DNA from: Planctomycetota bacterium | GTDB lineage: Bacteria; Planctomycetota; UBA1135; UBA2386 | DNA: 64,000 nt | Direction: 5' to 3' | NCBI GenBank assembly: GCA_965223545.1 | Contig: OZ245006.1 | Coordinates: 3,776,001-3,840,000, forward strand | In this document: positions 12,725 to 54,963 of the stretch, in pieces | Layout: the number at the start of each line of letters is the position of its first letter | How positions within the stretch are numbered: the stretch's first letter is position 1 | The notes under the pieces: generated by a model | The model's input: the letters and a program-made list of their open reading frames with translations, nothing else | Databases searched by the model: none | Told to the model about the DNA's origin: nothing | Translations under genes and position numbers: made by a program

Positions 12725-13603
12725 ATGGACTTCGTGCTCGAGCATCGCCATCGGCGCGTCACGGCCGACGAGGTCGCGTTCATCCGCGGTCTCATCGCCG
12801 AGCACCCCGACGCCAGTCGGCGCGCGTTGTCGGCGAAGCTGTGTGAGGCATGGGATTGGCGCCAGCCCAACGGCAGCCTGCGTGACATGGTGTGTCGCTC
12901 GCTGATGCTCGAGTTGCATCGGGCTGGCCACATCGAGCTACCGCCGAAGCGCTGCTCGCCGCGCAACAATCTGGCGCGGCGCAAGAAGCCCGAGTCGGTC
13001 GACGTGGACCAAAGCGCGATTCGTACCGACCTCCGCTCCCTCGGTCCGCTGGCGATCCGGCAAGTGCGGCGCACCGCCGAGGAGCCGCTGCTCAACGGCC
13101 TGATCGAGACGCACCACTACCTCGGGTACACGCAGCCGGTCGGCGAGCACCTCAAGCACCTGGTGTTCGCCGGCGATCGGCCGATCGCGTGCTTCACGTG
13201 GAGCTCTGCGCCGCGGCATCTGGGCCCGCGCGACCGCTTCATCGGGTGGAGCGCACAAGCGCGGCTGCGCAACATCCGGTTCGTCGCCTACAACAGCCGG
13301 TTCCTGATTCTGCCGTGGGTCGAGGTGCCGCACCTGGCGTCACACCTCCTCGGGAGGATGGTGCGCGCGCTGCCCGGCGAGTGGCAGCAGGTGTACGGGC
13401 ACCCGGTCCACTTCGCCGAGACCTTCGTGTACCCGGCCAAGTTCCGTGGCACGTGCTACCGGGCGGCGAACTGGATCGACCTGGGACCGACGACGGGACG
13501 CGGCAAGGACGATCAGACCAAGCGTCCGAACCGACCGCTCAAGGACGTGCTCGGCTATCCGCTGACGAAGCGTTTCCGGGAGCATCTCTGCCGGCTACCG
13601 TGA
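12725..13603 (+). CDS. DUF4338 domain protein (DruA-like), inside the IS66 element
   Basis: Motifs SRRALSAKLCEAWDWRQPNG, HHYLGY, RDRFIGW, NSRFLILPWV, HLASHLL, ETFV and GTCYRAANWIDLGPTTGRG. Confidence 0.8.
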   Translation: MDFVLEHRHRRVTADEVAFIRGLIAEHPDASRRALSAKLCEAWDWRQPNGSLRDMVCRSLMLELHRAGHIELPPKRCSPRNNLARRKKPESVDVDQSAIRTDLRSLGPLAIRQVRRTAEEPLLNGLIETHHYLGYTQPVGEHLKHLVFAGDRPIACFTWSSAPRHLGPRDRFIGWSAQARLRNIRFVAYNSRFLILPWVEVPHLASHLLGRMVRALPGEWQQVYGHPVHFAETFVYPAKFRGTCYRAANWIDLGPTTGRGKDDQTKRPNRPLKDVLGYPLTKRFREHLCRLP

Positions 13604-15273
13604 CGGCCAACAGTACCAAGTCGTCCGGCAAGTCGAAGCCGGACCTGAAGGTCGTCGACATGCGCAAGTTGGAGGACATCGTCGAACGAGCGTCGCGTGC
13701 GCTGCCCGAAGACGATGGCACGACGCTCCGAGCGTCGGTGGAGACTTTGGCGTGGCTGCAGCAGGAGCTGGCGAAGAAGGACGTCGACCTCGCACGGCTT
13801 CGCAGCCTGTTCGGGCTGAACACGAGCGAGAAGACGCGAGACGTGCTGGACGAGAAGGCCGACAAGCCGAAGGGCCGCGGCGACGCCGACAACGACAAGT
13901 CCGACCGCAAGCCGGCGAAGAAGAAGGCCAAGGGCCACGGTCGCAAATCGGCCGCCGACTACATCGGCGCCAACCGGATCGAGGTCGCGCACGGCTCGCT
14001 GAAGTCCGGCGATCCCTGCCCCGAGTGTCCGACAAACAAGTGCGGAAAGATCTACAGACAGGGCAAGCCGAAGACGCTCGTGCGCGTGGTAGGCCAGGCG
14101 CCTCTACAGGCGACGGTCTACGAGCTGGAGCGATTGCACTGCAACCTGTGCGGCACGGTGTTCGTGGCCGAGCCGCCGCCTGGCGTGGGCAAGAAGAAGT
14201 ACGACGCAACGTCGGCGAGCATGATCGCACTGCTGAAGTACGGGAGCGGCATGCCGTTCAATCGACTCGAGCAGCTTCAGGGGAGCCTCGGGATCCCCCT
14301 GCCAGCCGCAACCCAGTGGGACATCGTGAGCGCGGCCGCGACCGAGCTCACGCCGATCCACGACGAGCTGATCCGGCAGGCCGCGCAGGGTCGAGTGATG
14401 CACAACGACGACACCTCGATGCGGGTACTGGCGTTGCGCAAGCACATCGACGAGCAGCAGAAGTCCGGGGAGACGGACCGTACCGGCATCTTCTCGACCG
14501 GCGTCGTGTCGGTGCTCGATGACGGTCACCGCGTCGCGCTGTTCTTCACGGGCCGCCAACATGCCGGCGAGAACATCGAGGATGTCCTCGCGCATCGCGC
14601 CGCCGACCTCGGCAAGCCGACGCAGATATGCGACGGCCTGGACCGCAACCTGCCGAGAGAGTTCGAGACCGTGGTCGGCAACTGCCTCGCGCACGCGCGG
14701 CGGAAGTTCGTCGAGGTGGTGAACAGTTTCCCCGAAGAGTGCCGTCACGTGCTCGAGACCCTGCGCGATGTCTACGCGCACGACGCGACCACGCGCAAGC
14801 GCGGGATGTCGGACGAGGAGCGGTTGCGCTACCACCAGAAGCACAGCCAACCGCTGATGGACGGGCTCAGGGCGTGGATGGACGAACGCTTCGATCAGAA
14901 GCTGGTCGAGCCGAATTCGGCGCTGGGCAGCGCAATCACCTACATGACCAAACGCTGGGACCGGCTGACGCTGTTCCTGCGCGAGCCAGGGGCGCCGCTG
15001 GACAACAATGTTGTCGAACGCGCGCTGAAGAAGGCGATCCTCAATCGCAAGAACGCGCTGTTCTACGAGACCGAGAACGGCGCACGAGTCGGCGACCTGT
15101 TCATGTCGCTGATCCACACTGCCGAGCTCGTGGCCGCCAACCCGCGGGAATACCTGACCGCGGTGCTCACGCACATCGATGTCGCCCAGCGCGATCCCGG
15201 CAGATGGATGCCGTGGAGCTACTCGGCGACGGCAAGTGAGCTGGATGGTGCCGTGCCATCAGCCGCCCAGTAA
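13600..15273 (+). CDS. tnpC: IS66 DDE transposase TnpC
   Basis: GTG start overlaps the DUF4338 stop (GTGA). Leucine-zipper LFG..SEK, Zn-finger CPEC...CNLC, and DDE segments HNDDT, ICDG, CLAHARRKF and LDNNVVERALK. Confidence 0.92.
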   Translation: MTANSTKSSGKSKPDLKVVDMRKLEDIVERASRALPEDDGTTLRASVETLAWLQQELAKKDVDLARLRSLFGLNTSEKTRDVLDEKADKPKGRGDADNDKSDRKPAKKKAKGHGRKSAADYIGANRIEVAHGSLKSGDPCPECPTNKCGKIYRQGKPKTLVRVVGQAPLQATVYELERLHCNLCGTVFVAEPPPGVGKKKYDATSASMIALLKYGSGMPFNRLEQLQGSLGIPLPAATQWDIVSAAATELTPIHDELIRQAAQGRVMHNDDTSMRVLALRKHIDEQQKSGETDRTGIFSTGVVSVLDDGHRVALFFTGRQHAGENIEDVLAHRAADLGKPTQICDGLDRNLPREFETVVGNCLAHARRKFVEVVNSFPEECRHVLETLRDVYAHDATTRKRGMSDEERLRYHQKHSQPLMDGLRAWMDERFDQKLVEPNSALGSAITYMTKRWDRLTLFLREPGAPLDNNVVERALKKAILNRKNALFYETENGARVGDLFMSLIHTAELVAANPREYLTAVLTHIDVAQRDPGRWMPWSYSATASELDGAVPSAAQ

Positions 15274-15364: not shown

Positions 15365-15997
15365 TCAGCGCAGCCCGGCGCTCTTGTTCGGGACGGCGCG
15401 GCCGCGATACAGGTAGCCGCCGATCTTCGGCCCATCGAGGATCGGATGGGTCAGGTTCCGAACGTCGAACCCCGCCTCTCGGATCAGTGCATCGATCTCG
15501 CGATCGAGGTGACAACCCCCGGCGCAGACCTTGGACAGTCCGTTCAGCCGTCGCTGCCACTTGGCGACCTTCGGATCGGGAGACAATCCGTGCTCGAGGA
15601 AGTGCAGCGCTCCACCGGGCCGCAGAACCCGCCGCACTTCGGCGAGCGCCGCAACCACGTCGGGAATCGTGCACAGCGTCCAGGTGCTGGCGACCGCGTC
15701 CACCGAGGCGTCACCGAGCGGAATCTCTTCGCCGCGCAGCCCCATCCATTGGACGGGAATCCCGCTCCGCTCGACCCGCCGGCGGGCCAGCCTGCGATTC
15801 ACCACCGCCGGCTCCAGCGCCAAGATCTCGGTCACGGTGTCGGGGTAGTGCGCGAGGTTGTGACCGGCGCCGAACCCCAACTCGAGCACACGCCCCGACA
15901 AGGCGGCGAGGGCCGGGCCGCGGTGCTGGGCGAACTTCTTCGTACCCATGCAGAGGGCAACTCCGCGCGGCAGCAGGTGATCGGCGTAGAAGGCCAT
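15365..15997 (-). CDS. Class I SAM-dependent methyltransferase
   Basis: Motifs VLELGFGAGHN, TWTLCTIPD, VLRPGGALHFLEHG and GGCHLDR. The stop codon abuts the IS66 target duplication. Confidence 0.9.
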   Translation of the reverse strand: MAFYADHLLPRGVALCMGTKKFAQHRGPALAALSGRVLELGFGAGHNLAHYPDTVTEILALEPAVVNRRLARRRVERSGIPVQWMGLRGEEIPLGDASVDAVASTWTLCTIPDVVAALAEVRRVLRPGGALHFLEHGLSPDPKVAKWQRRLNGLSKVCAGGCHLDREIDALIREAGFDVRNLTHPILDGPKIGGYLYRGRAVPNKSAGLR

Positions 15998-16101
15998 TTG
16001 GAGTGGGCGTGTCGACCTGCTCGCCTCCATCGGCGTCGATCGACCGCGCCATGCTATCGCTTGAACGTTGCCGCGCGCAGTGATCAGCCCCGTCGCGGGC
16101 G

Positions 16102-16602
16102 TCATCCCGCCGATCGCCTGGACCACGGCGGCCTCGGCAACCACCGCGGCACGCGCGCACAGTAGGCCGGCCACGCTGCCGGAAACCGGCGCGCCGCCTG
16201 GGGCTCCTCGTAGAGCACGACGCGCAAATGGAACGCCACCATCGCGACGACGGCATAGACCGCCAGCGACGGTGAGGCGAACATCCACGCGTGACCGGCG
16301 ATCACCAGCAGCACACCGACGTACATCGGGTTGCGGCACCAGGCGAAGAGACCAGACGTGACCAGGGTGCGCGGTGGATTCCACGGCGCCAGAGTGCCGC
16401 CACCAACGGTGAAGAAGTCGCGCACCGTGCGCAGCAGGATGGCTGTGCCGCACACCGTGCACACCAACGCTTCCCAGCGCAGCGCCCCGCGGCGCGGATC
16501 GCCACTGCCGATCGCCAGTGGGATGACGAAGGCGACCATCAGCGGCAACGCCACGAAGGCGGCGACCGCGCTGCGCAGGCGCGCGCGCGGAGGTTCGGTC
16601 AC
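16102..16602 (-). CDS. Isoprenylcysteine carboxyl methyltransferase/PEMT-family membrane protein
   Basis: Motifs GGGTLAPWNPPRTLVTSGLFAWCRNPMYVG, EEP and YCARVPRWLP; hydrophobic helices; GTG start inferred. Confidence 0.88.
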   Translation of the reverse strand: MTEPPRARLRSAVAAFVALPLMVAFVIPLAIGSGDPRRGALRWEALVCTVCGTAILLRTVRDFFTVGGGTLAPWNPPRTLVTSGLFAWCRNPMYVGVLLVIAGHAWMFASPSLAVYAVVAMVAFHLRVVLYEEPQAARRFPAAWPAYCARVPRWLPRPPWSRRSAG

Positions 16603-16633: not shown

Positions 16634-17959
16634 TCACTGTTTCTCCGCGACGACGCCGCGCAGCGGTTGCTTCCGCAGCTCGGCCTCGCGCATCCAGAGC
16701 TCGCGGCCGCCGGCGGGACGCTCGGGGGCACCTGGTTCCAGCTCGACGTGCAGATCGAGATCGCCGTCCACGACGCCCTCGAGGCTGGTCGGCCAGGACG
16801 GGCGCCGGCTGACGTTGCGCGCCGACAGCCGATACCCCGGCACCCTGAGCGAGAGGCTGAACTGCCCGGCCGGGACCGCGTCGAACGCGAACCGCCCATC
16901 GTCTGCGAGCACGACCGTCTGCGAGTCCCACTGCAGCTCGGCAGACAAGAGCAGCCGCACTCCTTCGGGGAGCGCGGACCCGTCGCTGGTCGTGACCCGT
17001 CCGGCGACCCGGTGGCCGGCGGCGACCTCCAGCACACCGACGTCGACCGTGCCCTTGCCGACCCGGATCCTCTGCGGACCGGCCGCGCCGTGCGCAGCCA
17101 GGGAGGCCATCTTGCCGTAGATCACGTACTCGCTACCGGCGGGGACGTTGTTGAAGGTGAAGGCGCCGTCGGCGTCGGTGGCGATGGTGAACTCGCCGAA
17201 GAACTCACCGGCGCTGCGATCGACCTGGGCCAGGCCGATGGCGACGCCGGGCAGACCCGCATCACCATCGACCAAGCGGCCGACGACGGTCGCGCCGGGA
17301 TCGAGAGTGATCCGGTTCGGTGTGGCGCCGGTGCGCAATTGCAGCAGCTTGGGCGCCAGCCCCGGCGAGCGAATGTCGACTCCGATCGCGTCAACCGCTT
17401 CCGCGTGACTCAGGTAGAACGTCCCGTCCGCGCCGGACACCGCGTACGAATCCAGCCCATCAACGGCGCCGAAAGTGCCGCGGCCGTCGTCCCAGTGGAT
17501 CGACCCGGCCGAGATCACCGCGCCGGCGACCGGCGTGCCGCGGTCGTCGACGATGAGGCCGTGCGCCACGCGCTGCGGGTCGGTGGGCGGCGGTGCCAGG
17601 GTCTCCAGCGTCACCGTCGGCGTGTCCACCAGTGGGTCGACCCGCCGCGCGTAGGTCGGCGTGTAGCCTTCGGCGAGCACCAGCACGTTGAACAGGAGCT
17701 CGGGGTCCAGGTCTTCGATGACGAACGCACCGCGCTCGTCGGCCGTTGCGGCTTTGCCGCAGTCGGCGTAGCAGCTGGGTCAATAGGGGCTCAAACCCTC
17801 GCGCAACGCGGCCGTGGCGATGCGCGCCGTGGCCCCGGCGACCGGCTCGCCGGCGGCATCGACGACGGTGCCGTGCAGCGCGGGGCCCGATTGGGCGGCG
17901 ATGGCGGCGGAGGTCGCCCACAACGGGAGAAGAACGCGGATCGGAAGGGTCGTCGGCAT
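16634..17959 (-). CDS. Secreted carboxypeptidase-regulatory-like (CarboxypepD_reg) repeat protein with an in-frame TGA at codon 60; candidate selenoprotein
   Basis: ATG 17959, signal peptide, then LHGTVVDAAGEPVAGA...LSPY-[TGA 17780-17782]-PSCYADCGKAATADERGAF, continuing in frame into the 350-aa ORF. Three G.VVD..G.P..GA-type repeats. Confidence 0.75.
17742..17767 (-). other. SECIS-like stem-loop 12 nt downstream of the in-frame UGA
   Basis: mRNA reads GCCG-AC-UGCGGC-AAA-GCCGCA-A-CGGC: a perfect 6-bp upper stem plus a 4-bp lower stem. Confidence 0.5.
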
Positions 17960-18016: not shown

Positions 18017-19513
18017 ATGCGCGCATCCATTCCACTCCTGCTTCTCGCGTTGACGGCGTGCCACTCGCCGCGGACCGCCCTGCCGCGCATCGCGGAGCTC
18101 TACAACGACGCCGCCAAGAAGGAGACCCGCAATCCCGTCGTCGTCATCCACGGGATCCTCGGCGCGCGGCTCGCGCAGCGCTCGACCGACAAGACCGTGT
18201 GGGGCGCCTTCACCTCGCGCAGCATCAATCCGAACACCGACGAGGGAGCGCGCGCGATGGCGCTGCCGCTGAGCCCGCCGGCCAACGCGATGGAGTACGA
18301 CGCCGAGACCGCCGACGTGTACCCGACGGGTCCGCTCGAGGCGCTCGAGTTCAACTTCTTGTTCCAGGTGCTGTCGGTCGACGTCTATGCCGCGATCCTG
18401 CGCACGCTGGGCGCCGGTGGCTACACCGACAACGTCGTGCTCGATCCGCTGAGCCCGGCCTACAGCGAGAACCACTTCACTTGCTTCTCGTTCTTCTACG
18501 ACTGGCGGCGCGACAACGTCGAGAACGCGATCCGCTTCGGTGAGTACCTCGACGAGACGCGCGCGCACATCTACGAGACGGCGGGGAAACGCATCATCGA
18601 GCTCCGCGCGAGCGGCAGCGAACAAGACCGCCGCGAGGCCGATTCCATGCAAGCTTGGCTGGACGAGGGCTTTCGCTTCGACGTCGTCGCGCACTCGATG
18701 GGCGGCCTGGTCGCGCGCTACTTTCTGCGCTACGGCGCCACCGACCTGCCAGCCGACGGCTCGATACCCGAAGTCACTTGGCGCGGCGCGGAGCAGATCG
18801 ACCGCCTGATCATGGTCGGCACGCCGAACTTCGGCGCCATGGACGCGCTGCGCAACCTGACCGAGGGCTTCCAGGTGGCGGCGATCTTCCCCCACTTCCA
18901 CCAGGCTTTGCTCGGCACGATGCCGTCGATCTATCAGCTGCTACCGCGCACGCGCCATCGGCTGTTCGTCGACTCCAGTGGGCGCGAGCTCGAACTCGAC
19001 GTGTTCGATCCCGAAGTCTGGGAGCGCTTCGGTTGGGGGTTGATGGATCCGAGCAGCGAAGCGGTCCTCGCTCGGCTCGAGCCGAACCTGGACGCCGCGG
19101 CTCGACGGGCGAAGGCGAAGGAGTACGTCACCTGGTCTTTGCAGCGCGCCAGCCGCTTCCATCGAGCGCTGGACCAAGTCCCACCGACCGCGCCGCCGAC
19201 CCGCCTCTACCTGTTCGCCGGTGACACCGAGGACACCCTGTCCTTGTGCCGCATCGAGCAGCATGGCGCGCGCACGGTGCCACAGTTCGATCGCCGCGAC
19301 TTGACGCTGCCCGGAGACGCGACGGTGCCGCGCTACAGCGCCGTCGGTGACGAACGGCGCACGACGCGCGATCCGAAGATGTACCTGCGATCGCCGATTC
19401 CGTGGTCCAACGTCACGTTCTTGGCCGACGACCACATCGGCATCACGAGCAACCCGCACTTCTCCAACAACACCCTGTTCCTGCTGCTGGAGACCCCACC
19501 GCCGGCGCGGTGA
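18017..19513 (+). CDS. Lipoprotein alpha/beta-hydrolase (LCAT/PGAP1-like lipase or acyltransferase)
   Basis: Lipobox LLALTAC; motifs VVVIHGILG, FFYDWRR, VAHSMGG nucleophile elbow, GTPNFGA, GDATVP and DH. Confidence 0.85.
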   Translation: MRASIPLLLLALTACHSPRTALPRIAELYNDAAKKETRNPVVVIHGILGARLAQRSTDKTVWGAFTSRSINPNTDEGARAMALPLSPPANAMEYDAETADVYPTGPLEALEFNFLFQVLSVDVYAAILRTLGAGGYTDNVVLDPLSPAYSENHFTCFSFFYDWRRDNVENAIRFGEYLDETRAHIYETAGKRIIELRASGSEQDRREADSMQAWLDEGFRFDVVAHSMGGLVARYFLRYGATDLPADGSIPEVTWRGAEQIDRLIMVGTPNFGAMDALRNLTEGFQVAAIFPHFHQALLGTMPSIYQLLPRTRHRLFVDSSGRELELDVFDPEVWERFGWGLMDPSSEAVLARLEPNLDAAARRAKAKEYVTWSLQRASRFHRALDQVPPTAPPTRLYLFAGDTEDTLSLCRIEQHGARTVPQFDRRDLTLPGDATVPRYSAVGDERRTTRDPKMYLRSPIPWSNVTFLADDHIGITSNPHFSNNTLFLLLETPPPAR

Positions 19514-19539: not shown

Positions 19540-22128
19540 CTATCGACCGCGCGCCGACAATGCCGCGTCGGCGCGCGGATCCTCGGGGCATGCCGCACGC
19601 CAATGCGCTGCAACCTGCCGTGCGAGCTCCGGTGACTCGAGATGCTGCGCGGCTTGTAGCAGGATCTCGTGCTCGTAGCCGGTGGTCGACCACGCCAGCA
19701 ACCGCTCGACGGTCGAGCGGTACCCATCGCGCACGCCTTCGCCATCGGCGTCCTCATCGAACTGCCGGCCACGAATGGTGAGCAGCAAACCCAAGACCCA
19801 CCGCTGCGAGAACACCGACGGGCGCTCGAGCGCAGCCTCGAGGTCCTCGATCCCGGCACGCTCATCGCCGAGTCCTGCCGCCAGCGCCCCGCGCAGCACG
19901 AGCAGGAGTGGGTCGGTCAGGTGCTCCAGCGCTTCGGAGCAAACCTGGCGCAGCTTCTCGCGACCCCGAGCACTCAAGATCGCCATCGGCACCGCGCGGA
20001 TCAGGGGCACGTAATGCCGGGCGATCACCGGCGGCAGCGGGAATGCCGTGGTCGCGCCGGCGCCGTCCGTGCGGTTCGCGGTCTTGCGCTGGTTCAGCAT
20101 CGCGACGAGAGGGCCCGCGATTCGCAAAGTCCGCCGCACCAGAGAGCCCACGCCTGACTCGCGTTCGACCGCCCATGGCCCGTGGAAGACCGAGATCAAC
20201 TCGCCGAGCCCCGCCACCGCCGACAACAAGTCCACTGCGCGCTCTTCATCCGCGGCGCGCGCCTGTTCGATCAGGATCCGCACGCGGGCTTCGTCTCCGC
20301 GCAGGCAGCTGACAAAACCGGCGTAGCCCATCGCGGTCGGGTCCTCCGGATACAACGCGCGCAGGGTCACGGAGAAGTCGGCCGCTTCCGCCAACCGCCC
20401 CTGACCGATCAGGGCGATGGCGAACGCGCCATTCGCCCGCCGATGAGTGGGCTCATGGCGGCGTGCGCGTTCGAGGTGGTCGACCAGCTCGTCCAAATGC
20501 TCCGCCAGCATGGCCTCGGCGTATGCCTCGTCCGCGGGCGTGAGCCCCAACTCGATTGCCTCGCGCACCTGCGCGAGCTTGGTGTCGGGATCGACGAGCC
20601 GATTGACATCGAGGTCCGCGTCGAGCAACAGCAACTTGGCGCGATGCTCCGGCGGGACTCCTTCGGCTCGCAGCTGCCTGAGCTCGGCGATCGCCTCGCT
20701 GCCGCGCAGGGCGCCGTCGAGCGCTTCGACCCTGGCCAACCGGCAGGCGATCGGATCGTAGCCCGATTCGGAGGCCCCCTCGTAGCTGCCGATCGCCTCC
20801 TCCCAACGCCCCCGCTGGGCGAACAGCCGCGCGGTGAGGAAGGTCGCCTGCGCCCGCGCCGCGAGCGTCTGTTGTTGCTCTTCCGCCAACCGCTCCCGCG
20901 CGGAGCGCTCCACGATGGCAATCGCCGTCGGCCCCCCGGTGAGCAAGATCAAACCCAGCGCCGCCAACGCGCTCGCCTGCCGGTGGCGCGCCACGAACAT
21001 CGCGGCACGCACCGGAGCCGGCGGCGGCGTCAGAATGCTCGGTCGCCCAGCCAAGAAGGCACGCAGCTCCTCCGCGATCTCCGCGACCCGCGGCCGGGCC
21101 TTCGGATTCTTGCGCAGCGCCGCGCGGCACAACCCATCCAGCGCTGCCGGCACGCGCGGATCCCGGCTGCGCGCAGGCGGCGCGTCGGAGCTCAAGACTG
21201 CTTGGCGTAGTGCGCGCGAGCTGCTCGCCCGGAACGGCACTCTCCGCACCAGCGCCTGATACAGCGTCACGCCGAGCCCGTAGCTGTCGGTCGCGGCTCC
21301 GACGGCACCGACCGCACCATCGATCTGCTCGGGCGCCATGTACAACGGCGAGCCCGCCCCGAAGCCGCCGTCGTCGACGTCGCCACCGAGCGCGCGCGCC
21401 AAGCCGAAGTCCAGCAGATGAGGAGCGCCGCTGTCGTCGACGAGAATGTTCCCCGGTTTGATGTCGCAATGGATCACGCCGCGACCGTGCGCGTGATCCG
21501 TCGCATCCGCGACGGCGGCCACGATGCGCGCCACGCAGCGGAAGTAGCCGGCCGGATCGGAATGGCCCGGTGGCCCGGGATCGGTAGCGAACGCGCGCGG
21601 TGACAGCGGCGCGGTCGGGCTCGGCAAGACGGACTCGAGCACCTTCGCCAGCGACCGCCCTTCGATCACGTCCATCACCAGGTAGGGCTCGCCGTCGTCG
21701 GTCGTCCGCGCCCCGTGCACCGTGACGATCGCCGGGTGGCGGAGGCGACCAATCAGTTTCGCCTCGGCGAGAAAGCGCGCCTTGGCGTCGCCGCGCAATG
21801 CGACTCGCGGCGCCAGCACCTTGATGGCGACTTCGCGCCCGAGCGAGGCCTCGTATGCGCGGTAGACCCAACCCATACCGCCGTGCCCCAGCACCTCGCG
21901 AACCTCGAAGCCACCGATGCTCGCGGGCAACGGCGGCACAGGCGGCGCTGTCTCGGTTCGCGACTGCAGCAAGCCCTCCGTGTCGCTCACCCACTCACTC
22001 TCGACCGCGTCGATGTAGTCGCGCAGGTCGGGCCGCCGCTCGCGCGCTCGGGCGAACGCGTCCGCCCCGCATTCGTCGGCGAGTGCGAGACAGAGATCCT
22101 CTGCTTCTCGTCGTTTTGCGTCAGTCAT
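19540..22128 (-). CDS. Hanks-type Ser/Thr protein kinase with a TM segment and TPR-like C-terminus
   Basis: Motifs LGHGGMGWVY, VAIKVL, HCDIKPGN, DFGLA and GSPLYMAPE; hydrophobic LAALGLILLTGG; ATG 22128 inferred. Confidence 0.92.
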   Translation of the reverse strand: MTDAKRREAEDLCLALADECGADAFARARERRPDLRDYIDAVESEWVSDTEGLLQSRTETAPPVPPLPASIGGFEVREVLGHGGMGWVYRAYEASLGREVAIKVLAPRVALRGDAKARFLAEAKLIGRLRHPAIVTVHGARTTDDGEPYLVMDVIEGRSLAKVLESVLPSPTAPLSPRAFATDPGPPGHSDPAGYFRCVARIVAAVADATDHAHGRGVIHCDIKPGNILVDDSGAPHLLDFGLARALGGDVDDGGFGAGSPLYMAPEQIDGAVGAVGAATDSYGLGVTLYQALVRRVPFRASSSRALRQAVLSSDAPPARSRDPRVPAALDGLCRAALRKNPKARPRVAEIAEELRAFLAGRPSILTPPPAPVRAAMFVARHRQASALAALGLILLTGGPTAIAIVERSARERLAEEQQQTLAARAQATFLTARLFAQRGRWEEAIGSYEGASESGYDPIACRLARVEALDGALRGSEAIAELRQLRAEGVPPEHRAKLLLLDADLDVNRLVDPDTKLAQVREAIELGLTPADEAYAEAMLAEHLDELVDHLERARRHEPTHRRANGAFAIALIGQGRLAEAADFSVTLRALYPEDPTAMGYAGFVSCLRGDEARVRILIEQARAADEERAVDLLSAVAGLGELISVFHGPWAVERESGVGSLVRRTLRIAGPLVAMLNQRKTANRTDGAGATTAFPLPPVIARHYVPLIRAVPMAILSARGREKLRQVCSEALEHLTDPLLLVLRGALAAGLGDERAGIEDLEAALERPSVFSQRWVLGLLLTIRGRQFDEDADGEGVRDGYRSTVERLLAWSTTGYEHEILLQAAQHLESPELARQVAAHWRAACPEDPRADAALSARGR

Positions 22129-22192
22129 GGGATCGCCGCCGGCGCCGGACCGGAGCTTGACCACGGATCTCGGACAACGGGATGATACCGGC

Positions 22193-22900
22193 GTGTCCCC
22201 CAGACCATCCGACCACGGCGAAAGCGAGGCAACCGCCGCGCTGGCGGAGTTGCTCGCCCGCATCCGCGCCGGAGACGCGGAGGCCGAGACCGAGTTCCAC
22301 GGCCGGTTTGCCGCCGGACTCGACCTCGACTTGGCAAAGACCATGCGGGGCGCGACGCCCGTCCAGCGCAGCTATCACGACCAGCTCGTACACGAGACGA
22401 TGCTCACGGCGTTCGACCAGATCCGGGGGGAACACGTCGAGCTGCGCGGCACCATCGAGCTGCGTGCGTGGCTCCGTCGTGTGTTGCGAAACAAGTTTCT
22501 CGACCTCTGTCGGAAGCTGAAGGCGGAACCGCTCGAGCAGGCCCCCGCGGCGTCCGAGTCCTCGACGAGTTGGTTGCACGGCGTGTGGTCCGACTGCACC
22601 GGCATCCTCACCCGGCTCGCACGGCAAGAGGATGGTCGGCTGCTCAGGCAGGCCATTCGCAACCTGCAAGACCGCTCTCGAGAGCTCGTCGAGTTGCGCT
22701 TCTTCTGGGACCACAGCTGGTGGGAGGTCGCCCTGGAACTCGACGCCGGCCGCGTCGACCCGGAAGCGAGTGCCGGGCAGCGGCGAGACCACGCGGAACG
22801 CGTGCGCAAAGAGTTCGAGGGCCCGGTCCTTCGAGAACTCGCCCTGAAGCTTCAACAACAACGCCGCCTCGCCGACGACGCCACTGCGTACGGCCCGTGA
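22193..22900 (+). CDS. ECF-type sigma-70 factor, divergent from the kinase
   Basis: Motifs ELLARIRAGDAEA, LRAWLRRVLRNKFLD and AIRNL...RELVELRFFWDHSWWEVALEL. Start uncertain (GTG 22193 or ATG 22127). Confidence 0.75.
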   Translation: MSPRPSDHGESEATAALAELLARIRAGDAEAETEFHGRFAAGLDLDLAKTMRGATPVQRSYHDQLVHETMLTAFDQIRGEHVELRGTIELRAWLRRVLRNKFLDLCRKLKAEPLEQAPAASESSTSWLHGVWSDCTGILTRLARQEDGRLLRQAIRNLQDRSRELVELRFFWDHSWWEVALELDAGRVDPEASAGQRRDHAERVRKEFEGPVLRELALKLQQQRRLADDATAYGP

Positions 22901-54093: not shown

Positions 54094-54912
54094 ATGAACG
54101 ACTCGCAGCTCGCAACGAACGTCCTGCCCGCCAACGAGAAGGCGGCCCACACCTGGAGCAACGGCGGCGCCGCGTACGATCGCATCAGCCGCCAGATCGC
54201 CGATGCCATCGAGCATTGCGTCGATCGAATCCGCCTTCCGCCCGGTGCCCGCGTGCTCGACGTCGCGACCGGCACCGGCTGGACCGCGCGCCGCCTCGCC
54301 GCCCGCGGCCACTCCGTGGTGGGGGTCGACTTCGCCGCCGACGTGTTGGCCGCCGCCCGCTCGCTGTCGCCGGACACCGCGATCGACTACCGGGTCGCCG
54401 ATGCCGAGGCCCTGCCGTTCGAGGACGACTCCTTCGACGCGGTGGTGTCCACCTTCGGCGTGATGTTCTGCGCGCGGCCGGAGCGGGCCGCCGCCGAGCT
54501 CGCCCGGGTCTGCAAGCCCGGCGGGCAGCTGGCGCTGGCGACCTGGGCCACCGAGGGCGGCATCCGCGACATGTTCTCCGTCATCGTGCGCTATCTGCCG
54601 GGCCAACGCGGACCCGATCCCAGCCCCTTCGCCTGGGGCGATCCCGAGCGGCTGCGCGCACTGTTCGGCACCGCGTTCGATGTCGGAATCGAGACCGCCA
54701 CTTCGTGGTTCCGCGCCGACGACGGCGAGGACGCGTTCCAGCAGTTCGCCACCGGCTACGGCCCGGTCGTCTCGCTGCTGCAGTCACTGGAGCCCGAGCG
54801 CGTCCAGCAATTCCACCGGGACTTCGTCGCCTTCCACGAACAGTACCGGACCGAGCTGGGGATCTTGGTTCCGCGGCCCTACGTCATTACCGCCGGGAAG
54901 TGCGGGGTCTGA
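54094..54912 (+). CDS. Class I SAM-dependent methyltransferase (UbiE-like)
   Basis: Motifs VLDVATGTG, DAEALPFEDDSFDAVVSTFGVMF and ELARVCKPGG. Confidence 0.92.
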   Translation: MNDSQLATNVLPANEKAAHTWSNGGAAYDRISRQIADAIEHCVDRIRLPPGARVLDVATGTGWTARRLAARGHSVVGVDFAADVLAAARSLSPDTAIDYRVADAEALPFEDDSFDAVVSTFGVMFCARPERAAAELARVCKPGGQLALATWATEGGIRDMFSVIVRYLPGQRGPDPSPFAWGDPERLRALFGTAFDVGIETATSWFRADDGEDAFQQFATGYGPVVSLLQSLEPERVQQFHRDFVAFHEQYRTELGILVPRPYVITAGKCGV

Positions 54913-54915
54913 TTT

Positions 54916-54963
54916 GGTTTCCTAAACCGGAGGTCACAGGTTCGAATCCTGTCGGGCGTACCA
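54916..54963 (+). other. 3' half of tRNA-Arg(CCT), att-like site; not an intact tRNA
   Basis: ggt-TTCCTAA-accgg anticodon arm, ACAGG-TTCGAAT-CCTGT T-arm and CGGGCGTA-CCA end; no D-arm or 5' acceptor strand upstream. Confidence 0.85.

Follow-up and report, generated by a model that had tools for sequence, protein, structure and literature searches.

When a single TGA cuts an otherwise open bacterial gene in two, is the gene broken, or is the codon read as an amino acid? This question is raised by a locus in a Planctomycetota bacterium (GenBank assembly GCA_965223545.1, contig OZ245006.1), within a stretch of 64,000 nucleotides (nt; positions 3,776,001 to 3,840,000) that we call the window. On its minus strand one frame of 441 codons (17959..16634) runs from ATG 17959 to a TGA at 16634-16636, and a sequence-only reading had proposed that an internal TGA at 17780-17782, codon 60, encodes selenocysteine (Sec). 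All four computational tests that this reading had named came out in favour of it; the analysis showed a correspondence of Sec and Cys at the codon, recurrence of the TGA in relatives, Sec machinery in the genome and a constraint on the RNA after the UGA. We consider it highly probable that the gene encodes an exported four-domain beta-sandwich selenoprotein, with UGA-60 read as Sec and a stem-loop of the selenocysteine insertion sequence (SECIS) type downstream. In this reading its loop, U60-P-S-C63-Y-A-D66-C67-x-K69, is an insert in the first domain, and the N-terminus is a probable Sec-type (secretion pathway) signal peptide.

An in-frame TGA at an invariant cysteine position

The TGA at codon 60 was the sole stop inside the 441-codon frame, and no frameshifts were present. 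The list of open reading frames (ORFs) divides the gene into an upstream piece and a 350-residue ORF (16634..17686, minus) in the same frame, so that the single frame, its lone TGA and the downstream ORF were all verified as the sequence-only reading had described them. The read-through product has 441 residues, MPTTLPIRVLLPLWATSAAIAAQSG...GLSPY-U-PSCYADCGKAATADERGAF, and reads GLSPY-U-PSCYADCGK around codon 60; the base after the UGA is C. The whole gene was covered by Logan contigs of two public runs with 0 differences and the TGA retained, so that the proposed check of positions 17780-17782 came out in favour; the runs represent two samples from a single study, from which the assembly itself may have been made. 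Two further runs (X5, X6) contain parts of the gene only, with codon 60 outside their coverage, and none of the listed runs is recorded as RNA. Because contigs of two runs span the gene without a difference, the TGA is no assembly slip. The features of the gene are as follows, each with the evidence it rests on.

16634..17959, minus strand: probable complete selenoprotein gene, 441 codons and the closing TGA at 16634-16636, with a single Sec-UGA inside (single-stop frame; profile match on both sides in relatives; AlphaFold2 model)
17897..17959, minus strand: start codon; residues 1-21 form a probable Sec-type signal peptide (read by eye)
17780..17782, minus strand: UGA codon 60, very likely read as selenocysteine (invariant Cys in the aligned homologues; TGA also in L191, an orthologue, and in all 80 metagenome loci fetched)
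17753..17782, minus strand: conserved loop U60-P-S-C63-Y-A-D66-C67-G-K69, proposed redox or metal site (invariant positions, n=87)
17742..17767, minus strand: SECIS-type stem-loop that begins 12 nt past the UGA, its loop on the Lys69 codon at 17753-17755 (energy, shuffles, covariation)
17585..17881, minus strand: first beta-sandwich (CarboxypepD_reg-like) domain, residues about 27-125, with the Sec loop inserted (secondary structure of the model; PF13620)
16730..17575, minus strand: beta-sandwich domains 2-4 (residues about 129-410), then a C-terminal helix, 419-428 (Pfam; model)

A database search gave 21 proteins, 17 of which were aligned; the window's own 350-residue ORF (P0002) and the weak matches P0020-P0022 were left out. 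The column of codon 60 was spanned by nine of the 17 homologues, and all nine have Cys there, within the motif C-P-S/Y-C-Y/W-A/P-D-C-x-K. The other eight begin 3' of the motif, in four cases directly behind it, which is the output expected of a gene caller if those genes have an in-frame stop. When the alignment was enlarged to 87 sequences, positions C60, P61, C63, D66, C67 and K69 were invariant. The sequence-only reading had suggested tabulating Cys against TGA at this column, and the tabulation went its way, with Cys and recurrent TGA but never Trp or a variable residue. A scan of genomes for the peptide CPSCY[AP]DC, which by construction finds Cys forms only, gave 145 stretches, 131 of them confirmed relatives, in records labelled Verrucomicrobiota, Planctomycetota, Acidobacteriota, Armatimonadota, Eisenbacteria and Hydrogenedentota.

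TGA forms were sought on metagenome contigs with a degenerate DNA pattern that placed TGA at the first motif position and required codons for the invariant residues P, C, D, C, K, G and F. This pattern matched 88 stretches, many from the same collections, where fewer than one chance match is expected by our own arithmetic (no tool computed it). We fetched 80 of the 88 and scored them with profiles built from the alignment of Cys forms. The family profile matched after the TGA in 80/80 loci, and the N-terminal profile matched before it, in the same frame, in 76/80; of the remaining four, L106 and L175 are cut by a contig end, and L160 and L162 have short upstream frames. The downstream frames stop after at least 340 residues in 48 loci, run off the contig in 27 and are shorter in five. 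Among these five, the frames of L131, L132 and L159 end at TGA after 226, 129 and 216 residues, and those of L162 and L180 at TAG. Decay of the copies or frameshifts in the assembly could explain them, as could a second recoded codon in the three that end at TGA.

A shorter TGA pattern was then applied to 401 sampled genomes of the window's phylum, in which a reversed control pattern had 0 matches. Three genomes matched: that of the window, G099 and G419. The match in G099 (L192) lay outside the family and was rejected as chance. The locus in G419 (L191; G419:C94:5711-8740) is a true TGA orthologue, 59% identical with both halves intact; it has a signal peptide, then ...KEGVSPY-U-PSCYADCGKFATAGERGAF..., and an intact remainder. 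Thus the nearest genomic relative of the window gene also carries TGA at this codon. The database protein P0004 (300 residues, 'hypothetical protein', source label 'Planctomycetes bacterium') turned out to be an N-terminally truncated call of L191, and P0012, which begins 11 residues past the TGA of another locus, L114, shares 88% identity with the part of L114 that follows this TGA. P0014, P0015 and P0018 likewise start just behind the motif and seem to have been truncated in the same way. The gene is sporadic, since 61 genomes of the window's family and order held no orthologue apart from a match of 30% identity in G005. CarboxypepD_reg paralogues in the own genome gave weak matches (E 2.7e-6 or worse), over residues 17-384 only.

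The forms differ in length and arrangement. Paralogous TGA forms occur in pairs about 6 kb apart in opposite orientation on one contig (L137 with L155; on another contig, L140 with L141), and on each such contig one form has 386 residues after the TGA and the other 346. L105, L156 and others are long Sec forms with about 660-675 residues after the TGA, the excess being extra C-terminal CarboxypepD_reg repeats only. Some Cys forms lie at the end of open frames 900-1600 codons long, together with sigma-70 regions or further repeats; these are possibly fusions or read-through of adjacent genes. Five records (L024, L026, L030, L061, L096) are titled 'uncultured Bifidobacteriaceae' or 'Bifidobacterium sp.' and have 38-41% identity, like the Verrucomicrobiota records; these labels of metagenome-assembled genomes look doubtful.

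The history of the codon was examined with a FastTree phylogeny of 127 distinct sequences (77 Cys, 50 Sec), in which the motif column was masked as X. The tree requires at least eight switches between Sec and Cys, at least three of them forced by well-supported branches; therefore Sec has been gained or lost several times. The window gene and L191 form a pair with support 100 inside a 15-row clade (support 95) in which the remaining 13 rows, all from Planctomycetota records, have Cys, and this lineage stands apart from the large group of Sec forms from soil and peat. The placement, taken with the source label of P0004, points to Planctomycetota as the probable phylum of the window's organism. 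Repeated switching of this kind is typical of true Sec/Cys families.

Selenocysteine machinery and the RNA element after the UGA

We found that the window's own genome (G000; 8.1 Mb in two contigs) holds selA, selB, selC and selD, the four genes for which the sequence-only reading had proposed a search. The tRNA-Sec scored 74.2 bits and was called by ARAGORN as tRNA-SeC with anticodon TCA (G000:C1:7952888-7952982), selA scored 384 bits, and the SelB wing domain was found within a 659-residue frame. The selD gene (346 bits) adjoins selA and has one in-frame TGA, reading GGG-U-AAK (G000:C1:1264004-1266101; loci L009, L011); UxxK is listed as the SelD site in a 2026 review (PMC13188914). As selD is itself a selenoprotein gene, the organism already depends on UGA-Sec decoding, and its Sec synthesis requires Sec. 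The other genome with a true TGA form, G419, has selA and a tRNA-Sec at 73.8 bits, so that the machinery was seen in 2/2 TGA-form genomes. Of five Cys-form genomes reached via their loci, two had selA and three were without a selA match, indicating that Cys forms occur both with and without the machinery. Within the window, the sole tRNA gene is a tRNA-Arg (CCT) at 54886-54963 (+).

The mRNA after the UGA can fold into a hairpin (17767..17742), GCCG-AC-UGCGGC-AAA-GCCGCA-A-CGGC, which begins 12 nt 3' of the UGA and has an energy of -15.3 kcal/mol. The bacterial SECIS (bSECIS) model asks for an apical loop of 3-9 nt, an upper stem of 4-16 bp, a G in the first two loop positions, a distance of 16-37 nt from UGA to loop and an energy of at most -7.5 kcal/mol (PMC13188914). 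In its minimum-energy form (AAA loop, spacing 24 nt), the window hairpin follows all of these rules but the loop G. When the top two pairs are opened, the loop becomes GCAAAGC, the upper stem has 4 bp, the spacing is 22 nt, the energy is -9.5 kcal/mol, and every rule of the model is satisfied. The sequence-only reading, which had pointed out this SECIS-like hairpin, had itself warned of its AAA loop. The warning stands for the minimum-energy structure, which lacks the G; it is softened by the opened form and by two relatives with the same stem, L104 and L118, which have 7-nt loops starting with GG and pass the full model.

To see whether the hairpin goes with the UGA, 64 unique Sec forms (the window included) were compared with 79 Cys forms. 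The mean minimum free energy of the 66 nt from the codon was -22.7 for Sec and -18.4 for Cys forms, at GC contents of 0.584 and 0.598. A single hairpin that passes all rules except the loop G was found in 61/64 Sec versus 43/79 Cys forms (Mann-Whitney p 8e-9, which overstates the case since the sequences within groups are related), with mean best energies of -16.8 and -8.3 kcal/mol, respectively. In synonymous-codon shuffles the mean z was -0.92 for Sec forms (15/64 below -1.64) and -0.11 for Cys forms (5/79); for the 60 nt after the window's UGA it was -2.2.

The Sec forms use at least three hairpin designs. In the first, used by 34 sequences, a GCGG-AUUG-CCGC hairpin stands on an extended lower stem; in the second, GCGCCC-GGUC-GGGUGC comes after this mini-hairpin, and its loop, at 34 nt from the UGA, agrees with the bSECIS model; the third, with its loop on the Lys codon, is that of the window. 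L191 keeps the window's stem and replaces the pair C27-G31 by A27-U31, where a synonymous Gly change is coupled to an Ala-to-Phe replacement. In 16 Lys-loop Sec forms, picked by eye for showing the helix and thus biased towards structure (17 were listed; L128 and L136, which fold in another register, were dropped), 70.3% of helix cells were paired, compared with 30-45% for slid partners. Seventeen cells had changed on both sides, against 9.7 +/- 2.1 in shuffles (0/500 reached this number), and the covariation score was 0.224 versus 0.141 (1/500).

The least biased of the RNA tests is synonymous-site conservation. Among pairs with 40-70% protein identity in control regions, we determined the share of identical residues that are encoded by identical codons. 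In the 16 codons after the UGA or Cys codon, this share was 0.67-0.72 for Sec and 0.49 for Cys forms, whereas in the flanks (25 codons before; codons +20 to +46) it was 0.41-0.43 and 0.41-0.44. The pattern indicates a constraint on the RNA that acts immediately 3' of the UGA and is confined to forms with this codon. Together with the folding comparison and the covariation, it backs the hairpin as a SECIS-type element.

Several observations weigh against Sec insertion or reduce the force of these tests. The hairpin of minimum energy has an AAA loop in place of the model's G, and the loop-G rule, applied to minimum-energy structures only, hardly discriminates, passing 24/64 Sec and 18/79 Cys forms. 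The occurrence of the relaxed hairpin in 43/79 Cys forms means that part of the folding comes from GC-rich coding sequence, and to this are added the kinship of sequences within the groups and the choice by eye of the covariation rows. The assembly may derive from the very two runs that confirm the TGA; five of the 80 TGA loci have the shorter downstream frames described above; and both collection scans fixed the codon sought, so that the ratio of Sec to Cys forms is not unbiased.

The protein, its neighbours and competing explanations

The N-terminus of the window protein, MPTTLPIRVLLPLWATSAAIAA, has by eye the look of a Sec-type signal peptide, with a positive n-region, a hydrophobic core and A-I-A before the cut; the equivalent in L191 is MTRSARFVLAALALAPLALAQ. 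No twin-arginine motif was found in the window protein's N-terminus, and the product is presumably exported. Pfam CarboxypepD_reg (PF13620) matched with 83.7 bits (cut-off 32.3) over four stretches. An AlphaFold2 model of the read-through protein, built on the 87-sequence alignment, had a mean predicted local distance difference test score (pLDDT) of 93.7 and a predicted template-modelling score of 0.85, and consisted of four beta-sandwich domains and a C-terminal helix; residues 8-18 had pLDDT below 50. The motif forms a loop (pLDDT 91-92) that runs from strand 44-52 to strand 70-72 and makes a short helical turn at residues 61-63. It sits as an insert in the first CarboxypepD_reg-like domain, just where the sequence-only reading had seen a motif inserted within a repeat. 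A thioredoxin-like fold was not encountered: there was no thioredoxin-type match in Pfam or NCBIfam, and the model is an all-beta sandwich.

The structural searches did not reach the loop. Foldseek against the PDB returned only generic tandem arrays of the prealbumin, pilin, Cna-B and SdrD types with low template-modelling scores, a profile search of the PDB gave NOMO2 as the sole sequence relative, and an atlas search with a natural Cys-form homologue (P0006) as query gave only generic CarboxypepD_reg clusters; none of the three returned anything on the loop.

The following chain of events would account for the gene. UGA codon 60 would be decoded as Sec by SelB and Sec-tRNA(Sec) with anticodon UCA, SelB being recruited by the mRNA stem-loop that starts 12 nt downstream and overlaps codons A65 to A73. 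The Sec-type signal peptide would direct export of the product, whose four beta-sandwich domains would be of the CarboxypepD_reg (transthyretin-like) type. The selenol at the N-terminal UxxC position would attack a disulfide of a substrate or partner and then form a selenylsulfide with C63, and C67 would be a third, resolving or relay thiol. Provided that Sec is inserted, we lean somewhat towards such a redox centre, with a U60/C63 selenylsulfide and C67 as resolving or relay residue. It is favoured because Sec stands at the N-terminal UxxC position as in most catalogued redox selenoproteins, because the dipeptide contains Pro, because a third Cys could resolve or relay, and because some relatives have thioredoxin-like neighbours.

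The genes around the window gene are the following.

18017-19510, plus strand: LCAT-like lipase
19543-22344, minus strand: Ser/Thr kinase
16102-16602, minus strand: PEMT/ICMT-type methyltransferase
15365-16099, minus strand: class I methyltransferase
12892-15270, plus strand: IS66-family transposase, 793-residue ORF (PF03050, 176.7 bits), about 1.4 kb from the gene's 3' end

For the relatives, 115 loci had at least 900 nt upstream, and in 76 of them (48 Cys-form, 28 Sec-form) an adjacent same-strand upstream ORF of at least 150 residues was scanned against Pfam. Among the 48 Cys-form loci this neighbour was a protein of about 950 residues with CarboxypepD_reg repeats and a terminal thioredoxin-like/AhpC-TSA domain in five, BlaR1/M56 in four, a Ser/Thr kinase in four (all Phycisphaerae-type), sigma-70 regions followed by CarboxypepD_reg repeats in three and an RskA-type anti-sigma factor in one. 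A BlaI-type repressor cluster was present in 13 loci. Most upstream ORFs of the 28 Sec-form loci had no Pfam match, and one was a DCC1-like thiol-disulfide oxidoreductase. A link to kinases was considered and dropped, the window kinase sharing only the catalytic domain with the kinases beside the Phycisphaerae-type relatives.

Collectively, the context hints at envelope signalling and thiol-redox partners, though it is not conserved. From the recurrent neighbours of the Cys forms, namely thioredoxin-ended CarboxypepD_reg proteins, BlaI/BlaR1-type sensors and extracytoplasmic function (ECF) sigma/anti-sigma modules, a role in envelope thiol-redox chemistry or sensing may tentatively be suggested. 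Two findings count against any such assignment of function: the neighbourhoods vary, the window's own neighbours not being the recurrent ones, and the searches found no relative in sequence or structure with a characterised site. Going further, it is conceivable, albeit speculative, that this is the first selenoprotein family on a CarboxypepD_reg/transthyretin-like beta-sandwich, and that its loop is an envelope redox or soft-metal sensor feeding thioredoxin-like, BlaR1-type or ECF-sigma partners. The same speculation would place the family in soil bacteria of the Planctomycetes-Verrucomicrobia-Chlamydiae (PVC) group and the Acidobacteriota, where at least three SECIS designs might have evolved over one peptide motif during switching between Cys and Sec.

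A different function for the same selenoprotein would be a soft-metal site, in which U60, C63 and C67 with D66 bind, for example, Cu(I), Zn, Hg, Cd or As for sensing, sequestration or delivery. Three invariant Cys/Sec residues and an invariant Asp and Lys within ten residues would suit such a site, as would a beta-sandwich scaffold without an oxidoreductase fold; signalling-type neighbours in relatives (BlaR1, ECF sigma) would fit a sensor, and predicted metal-binding selenoproteins are on record (CopZ-family, YHS-domain, MbdU and the SO_0444 efflux transporter; PMC13188914). However, no recurrent gene for metal transport or resistance was present among the 76 upstream ORFs scanned, and the neighbours with a chemical theme were thioredoxin-like (five loci) or the DCC1-like thiol-disulfide oxidoreductase (one locus). 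Sec as the first residue of a C-P-x-C-type pair is moreover the arrangement of most redox selenoproteins (UxxC rows of PMC13188914), and the probable export through a Sec-type signal peptide argues against a pre-assembled Fe-S cluster. We regard a metal site as possible but doubtful.

The alternatives that do without Sec fare much worse. The UGA might be read through or bypassed with a near-cognate Trp or Cys, or it might terminate translation, giving a 59-residue secreted peptide and a 350-residue protein from GTG 17686. Gene callers do split the gene in this way (P0002), and a UGA followed by C, as here, is a weak termination context. Yet the full product is modelled with confidence as four domains, of which the 350-residue protein would have the first only by half and no signal peptide before it, both parts are conserved in one frame in 76/80 TGA loci, and the constraint on the RNA after the UGA exists only in TGA forms. 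With the full Sec machinery and a Sec-dependent selD in the genome, and with Cys, the chemical analogue of Sec, as the aligned residue in every case, this explanation is quite improbable. Least credible of all is a simple nonsense mutation or sequencing error, that is, a recent pseudogene of a Cys-form ancestor: TGC or TGT becomes TGA by a single base change and the IS66-family transposase about 1.4 kb away shows that the region has seen mobile-element activity, but the same TGA stands in the 59%-identical L191 with its intact halves and in the 80 fetched metagenome loci, the 441 codons hold no other stop or frameshift, the contigs of two runs agree on the TGA, and the hairpin bears a compensatory change.

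Comparison with known selenoproteins

The reading of UGA-60 as Sec would thus define a family, and we asked whether it is already catalogued. Table 1 of the 2026 review lists 119 prokaryotic selenoprotein families and subfamilies, with no PF13620 or carboxypeptidase-regulatory entry among them (PMC13188914). The curated selenoprotein models that the table cites are part of NCBIfam release 20, and a scan of this release at E <= 0.1 brought up nothing but a weak S-layer match (17.6 bits against a cut-off of 1400). The family is not mentioned in the available portions of the deep-Sep paper, nor in those of the BSepDB paper and its supplement, whose family table S2 possibly lay outside the portion searched. 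Full-text searches of journals outside subscription, for the motif as well as for the domain, brought up no relevant paper. Across Table 1, NCBIfam and the literature searched, the statement of the sequence-only reading that it knew no such characterised selenoprotein family holds. Very probably, this is a new and widespread bacterial Sec/Cys selenoprotein family, absent from current catalogues and found by classic criteria; it is unusual in its predicted export and in its beta-sandwich in place of a thioredoxin fold.

Bacterial selenoproteins are systematically mis-annotated, and here the gene is split and its relatives are deposited as N-terminally truncated hypothetical proteins (P0004, P0012 and others). 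The annotation of at least 88 metagenome stretches and of genomes such as G000 and G419 would need correction, and the catalogue of 119 would gain one more family, exported and without the usual thioredoxin fold. A natural series of Sec and Cys forms, with several SECIS solutions over one peptide motif, would be useful for separating coding from RNA-structure constraint and for asking what an extracytoplasmic protein gains from selenium. Should the loop be a sensor, selenium would be linked to envelope signalling in Planctomycetota, Verrucomicrobiota and Acidobacteriota.

Four known systems invite comparison. DUF1573 is an Ig-like beta-sandwich domain common in envelope proteins of the PVC group and Bacteroidota. 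A DUF1573 selenoprotein (PF07610, UGC motif) is a catalogued prediction (PMC13188914, Table 1) and, like the window protein, is not a thioredoxin-fold enzyme, but it belongs to another Pfam family and has another motif, the window protein having no PF07610 match at E <= 0.1. GrdB, the selenoprotein B of glycine reductase, likewise has Sec followed by two conserved Cys, in a motif UxxCxxC (PMC13188914) that differs from the UxxCxxxC of the window. GrdB has an unrelated fold and binds substrate in the cytoplasm as one subunit of a complex of several enzymes, and the Pfam and NCBIfam scans detected no similarity of the window protein to it. Proteins with CarboxypepD_reg (PF13620), such as the NOMO subunit of the BOS complex and bacterial multi-repeat envelope proteins, share the domain family and the tandem architecture, and no record of any PF13620 member described as a selenoprotein was found in Table 1 of the review or in a full-text literature search that covered journals outside subscription.

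The closest parallel in chemistry is with the UxxC thiol-disulfide oxidoreductase selenoproteins (thioredoxin, glutaredoxin, DsbA-like, DsbG-like and thiol:disulfide interchange proteins; PMC13188914, Table 1), which likewise have Sec first in U-x-x-C and interchange it with Cys. They too have a bacterial in-frame UGA followed by a stem-loop within the coding region. Those of the Dsb type are also extracytoplasmic. In contrast to all of them, the window protein is matched by no Pfam or NCBIfam oxidoreductase model; its motif is an inserted loop in a transthyretin-like beta-sandwich rather than part of a thioredoxin fold, and its family has a third invariant Cys four residues further on, together with an invariant Asp and Lys.

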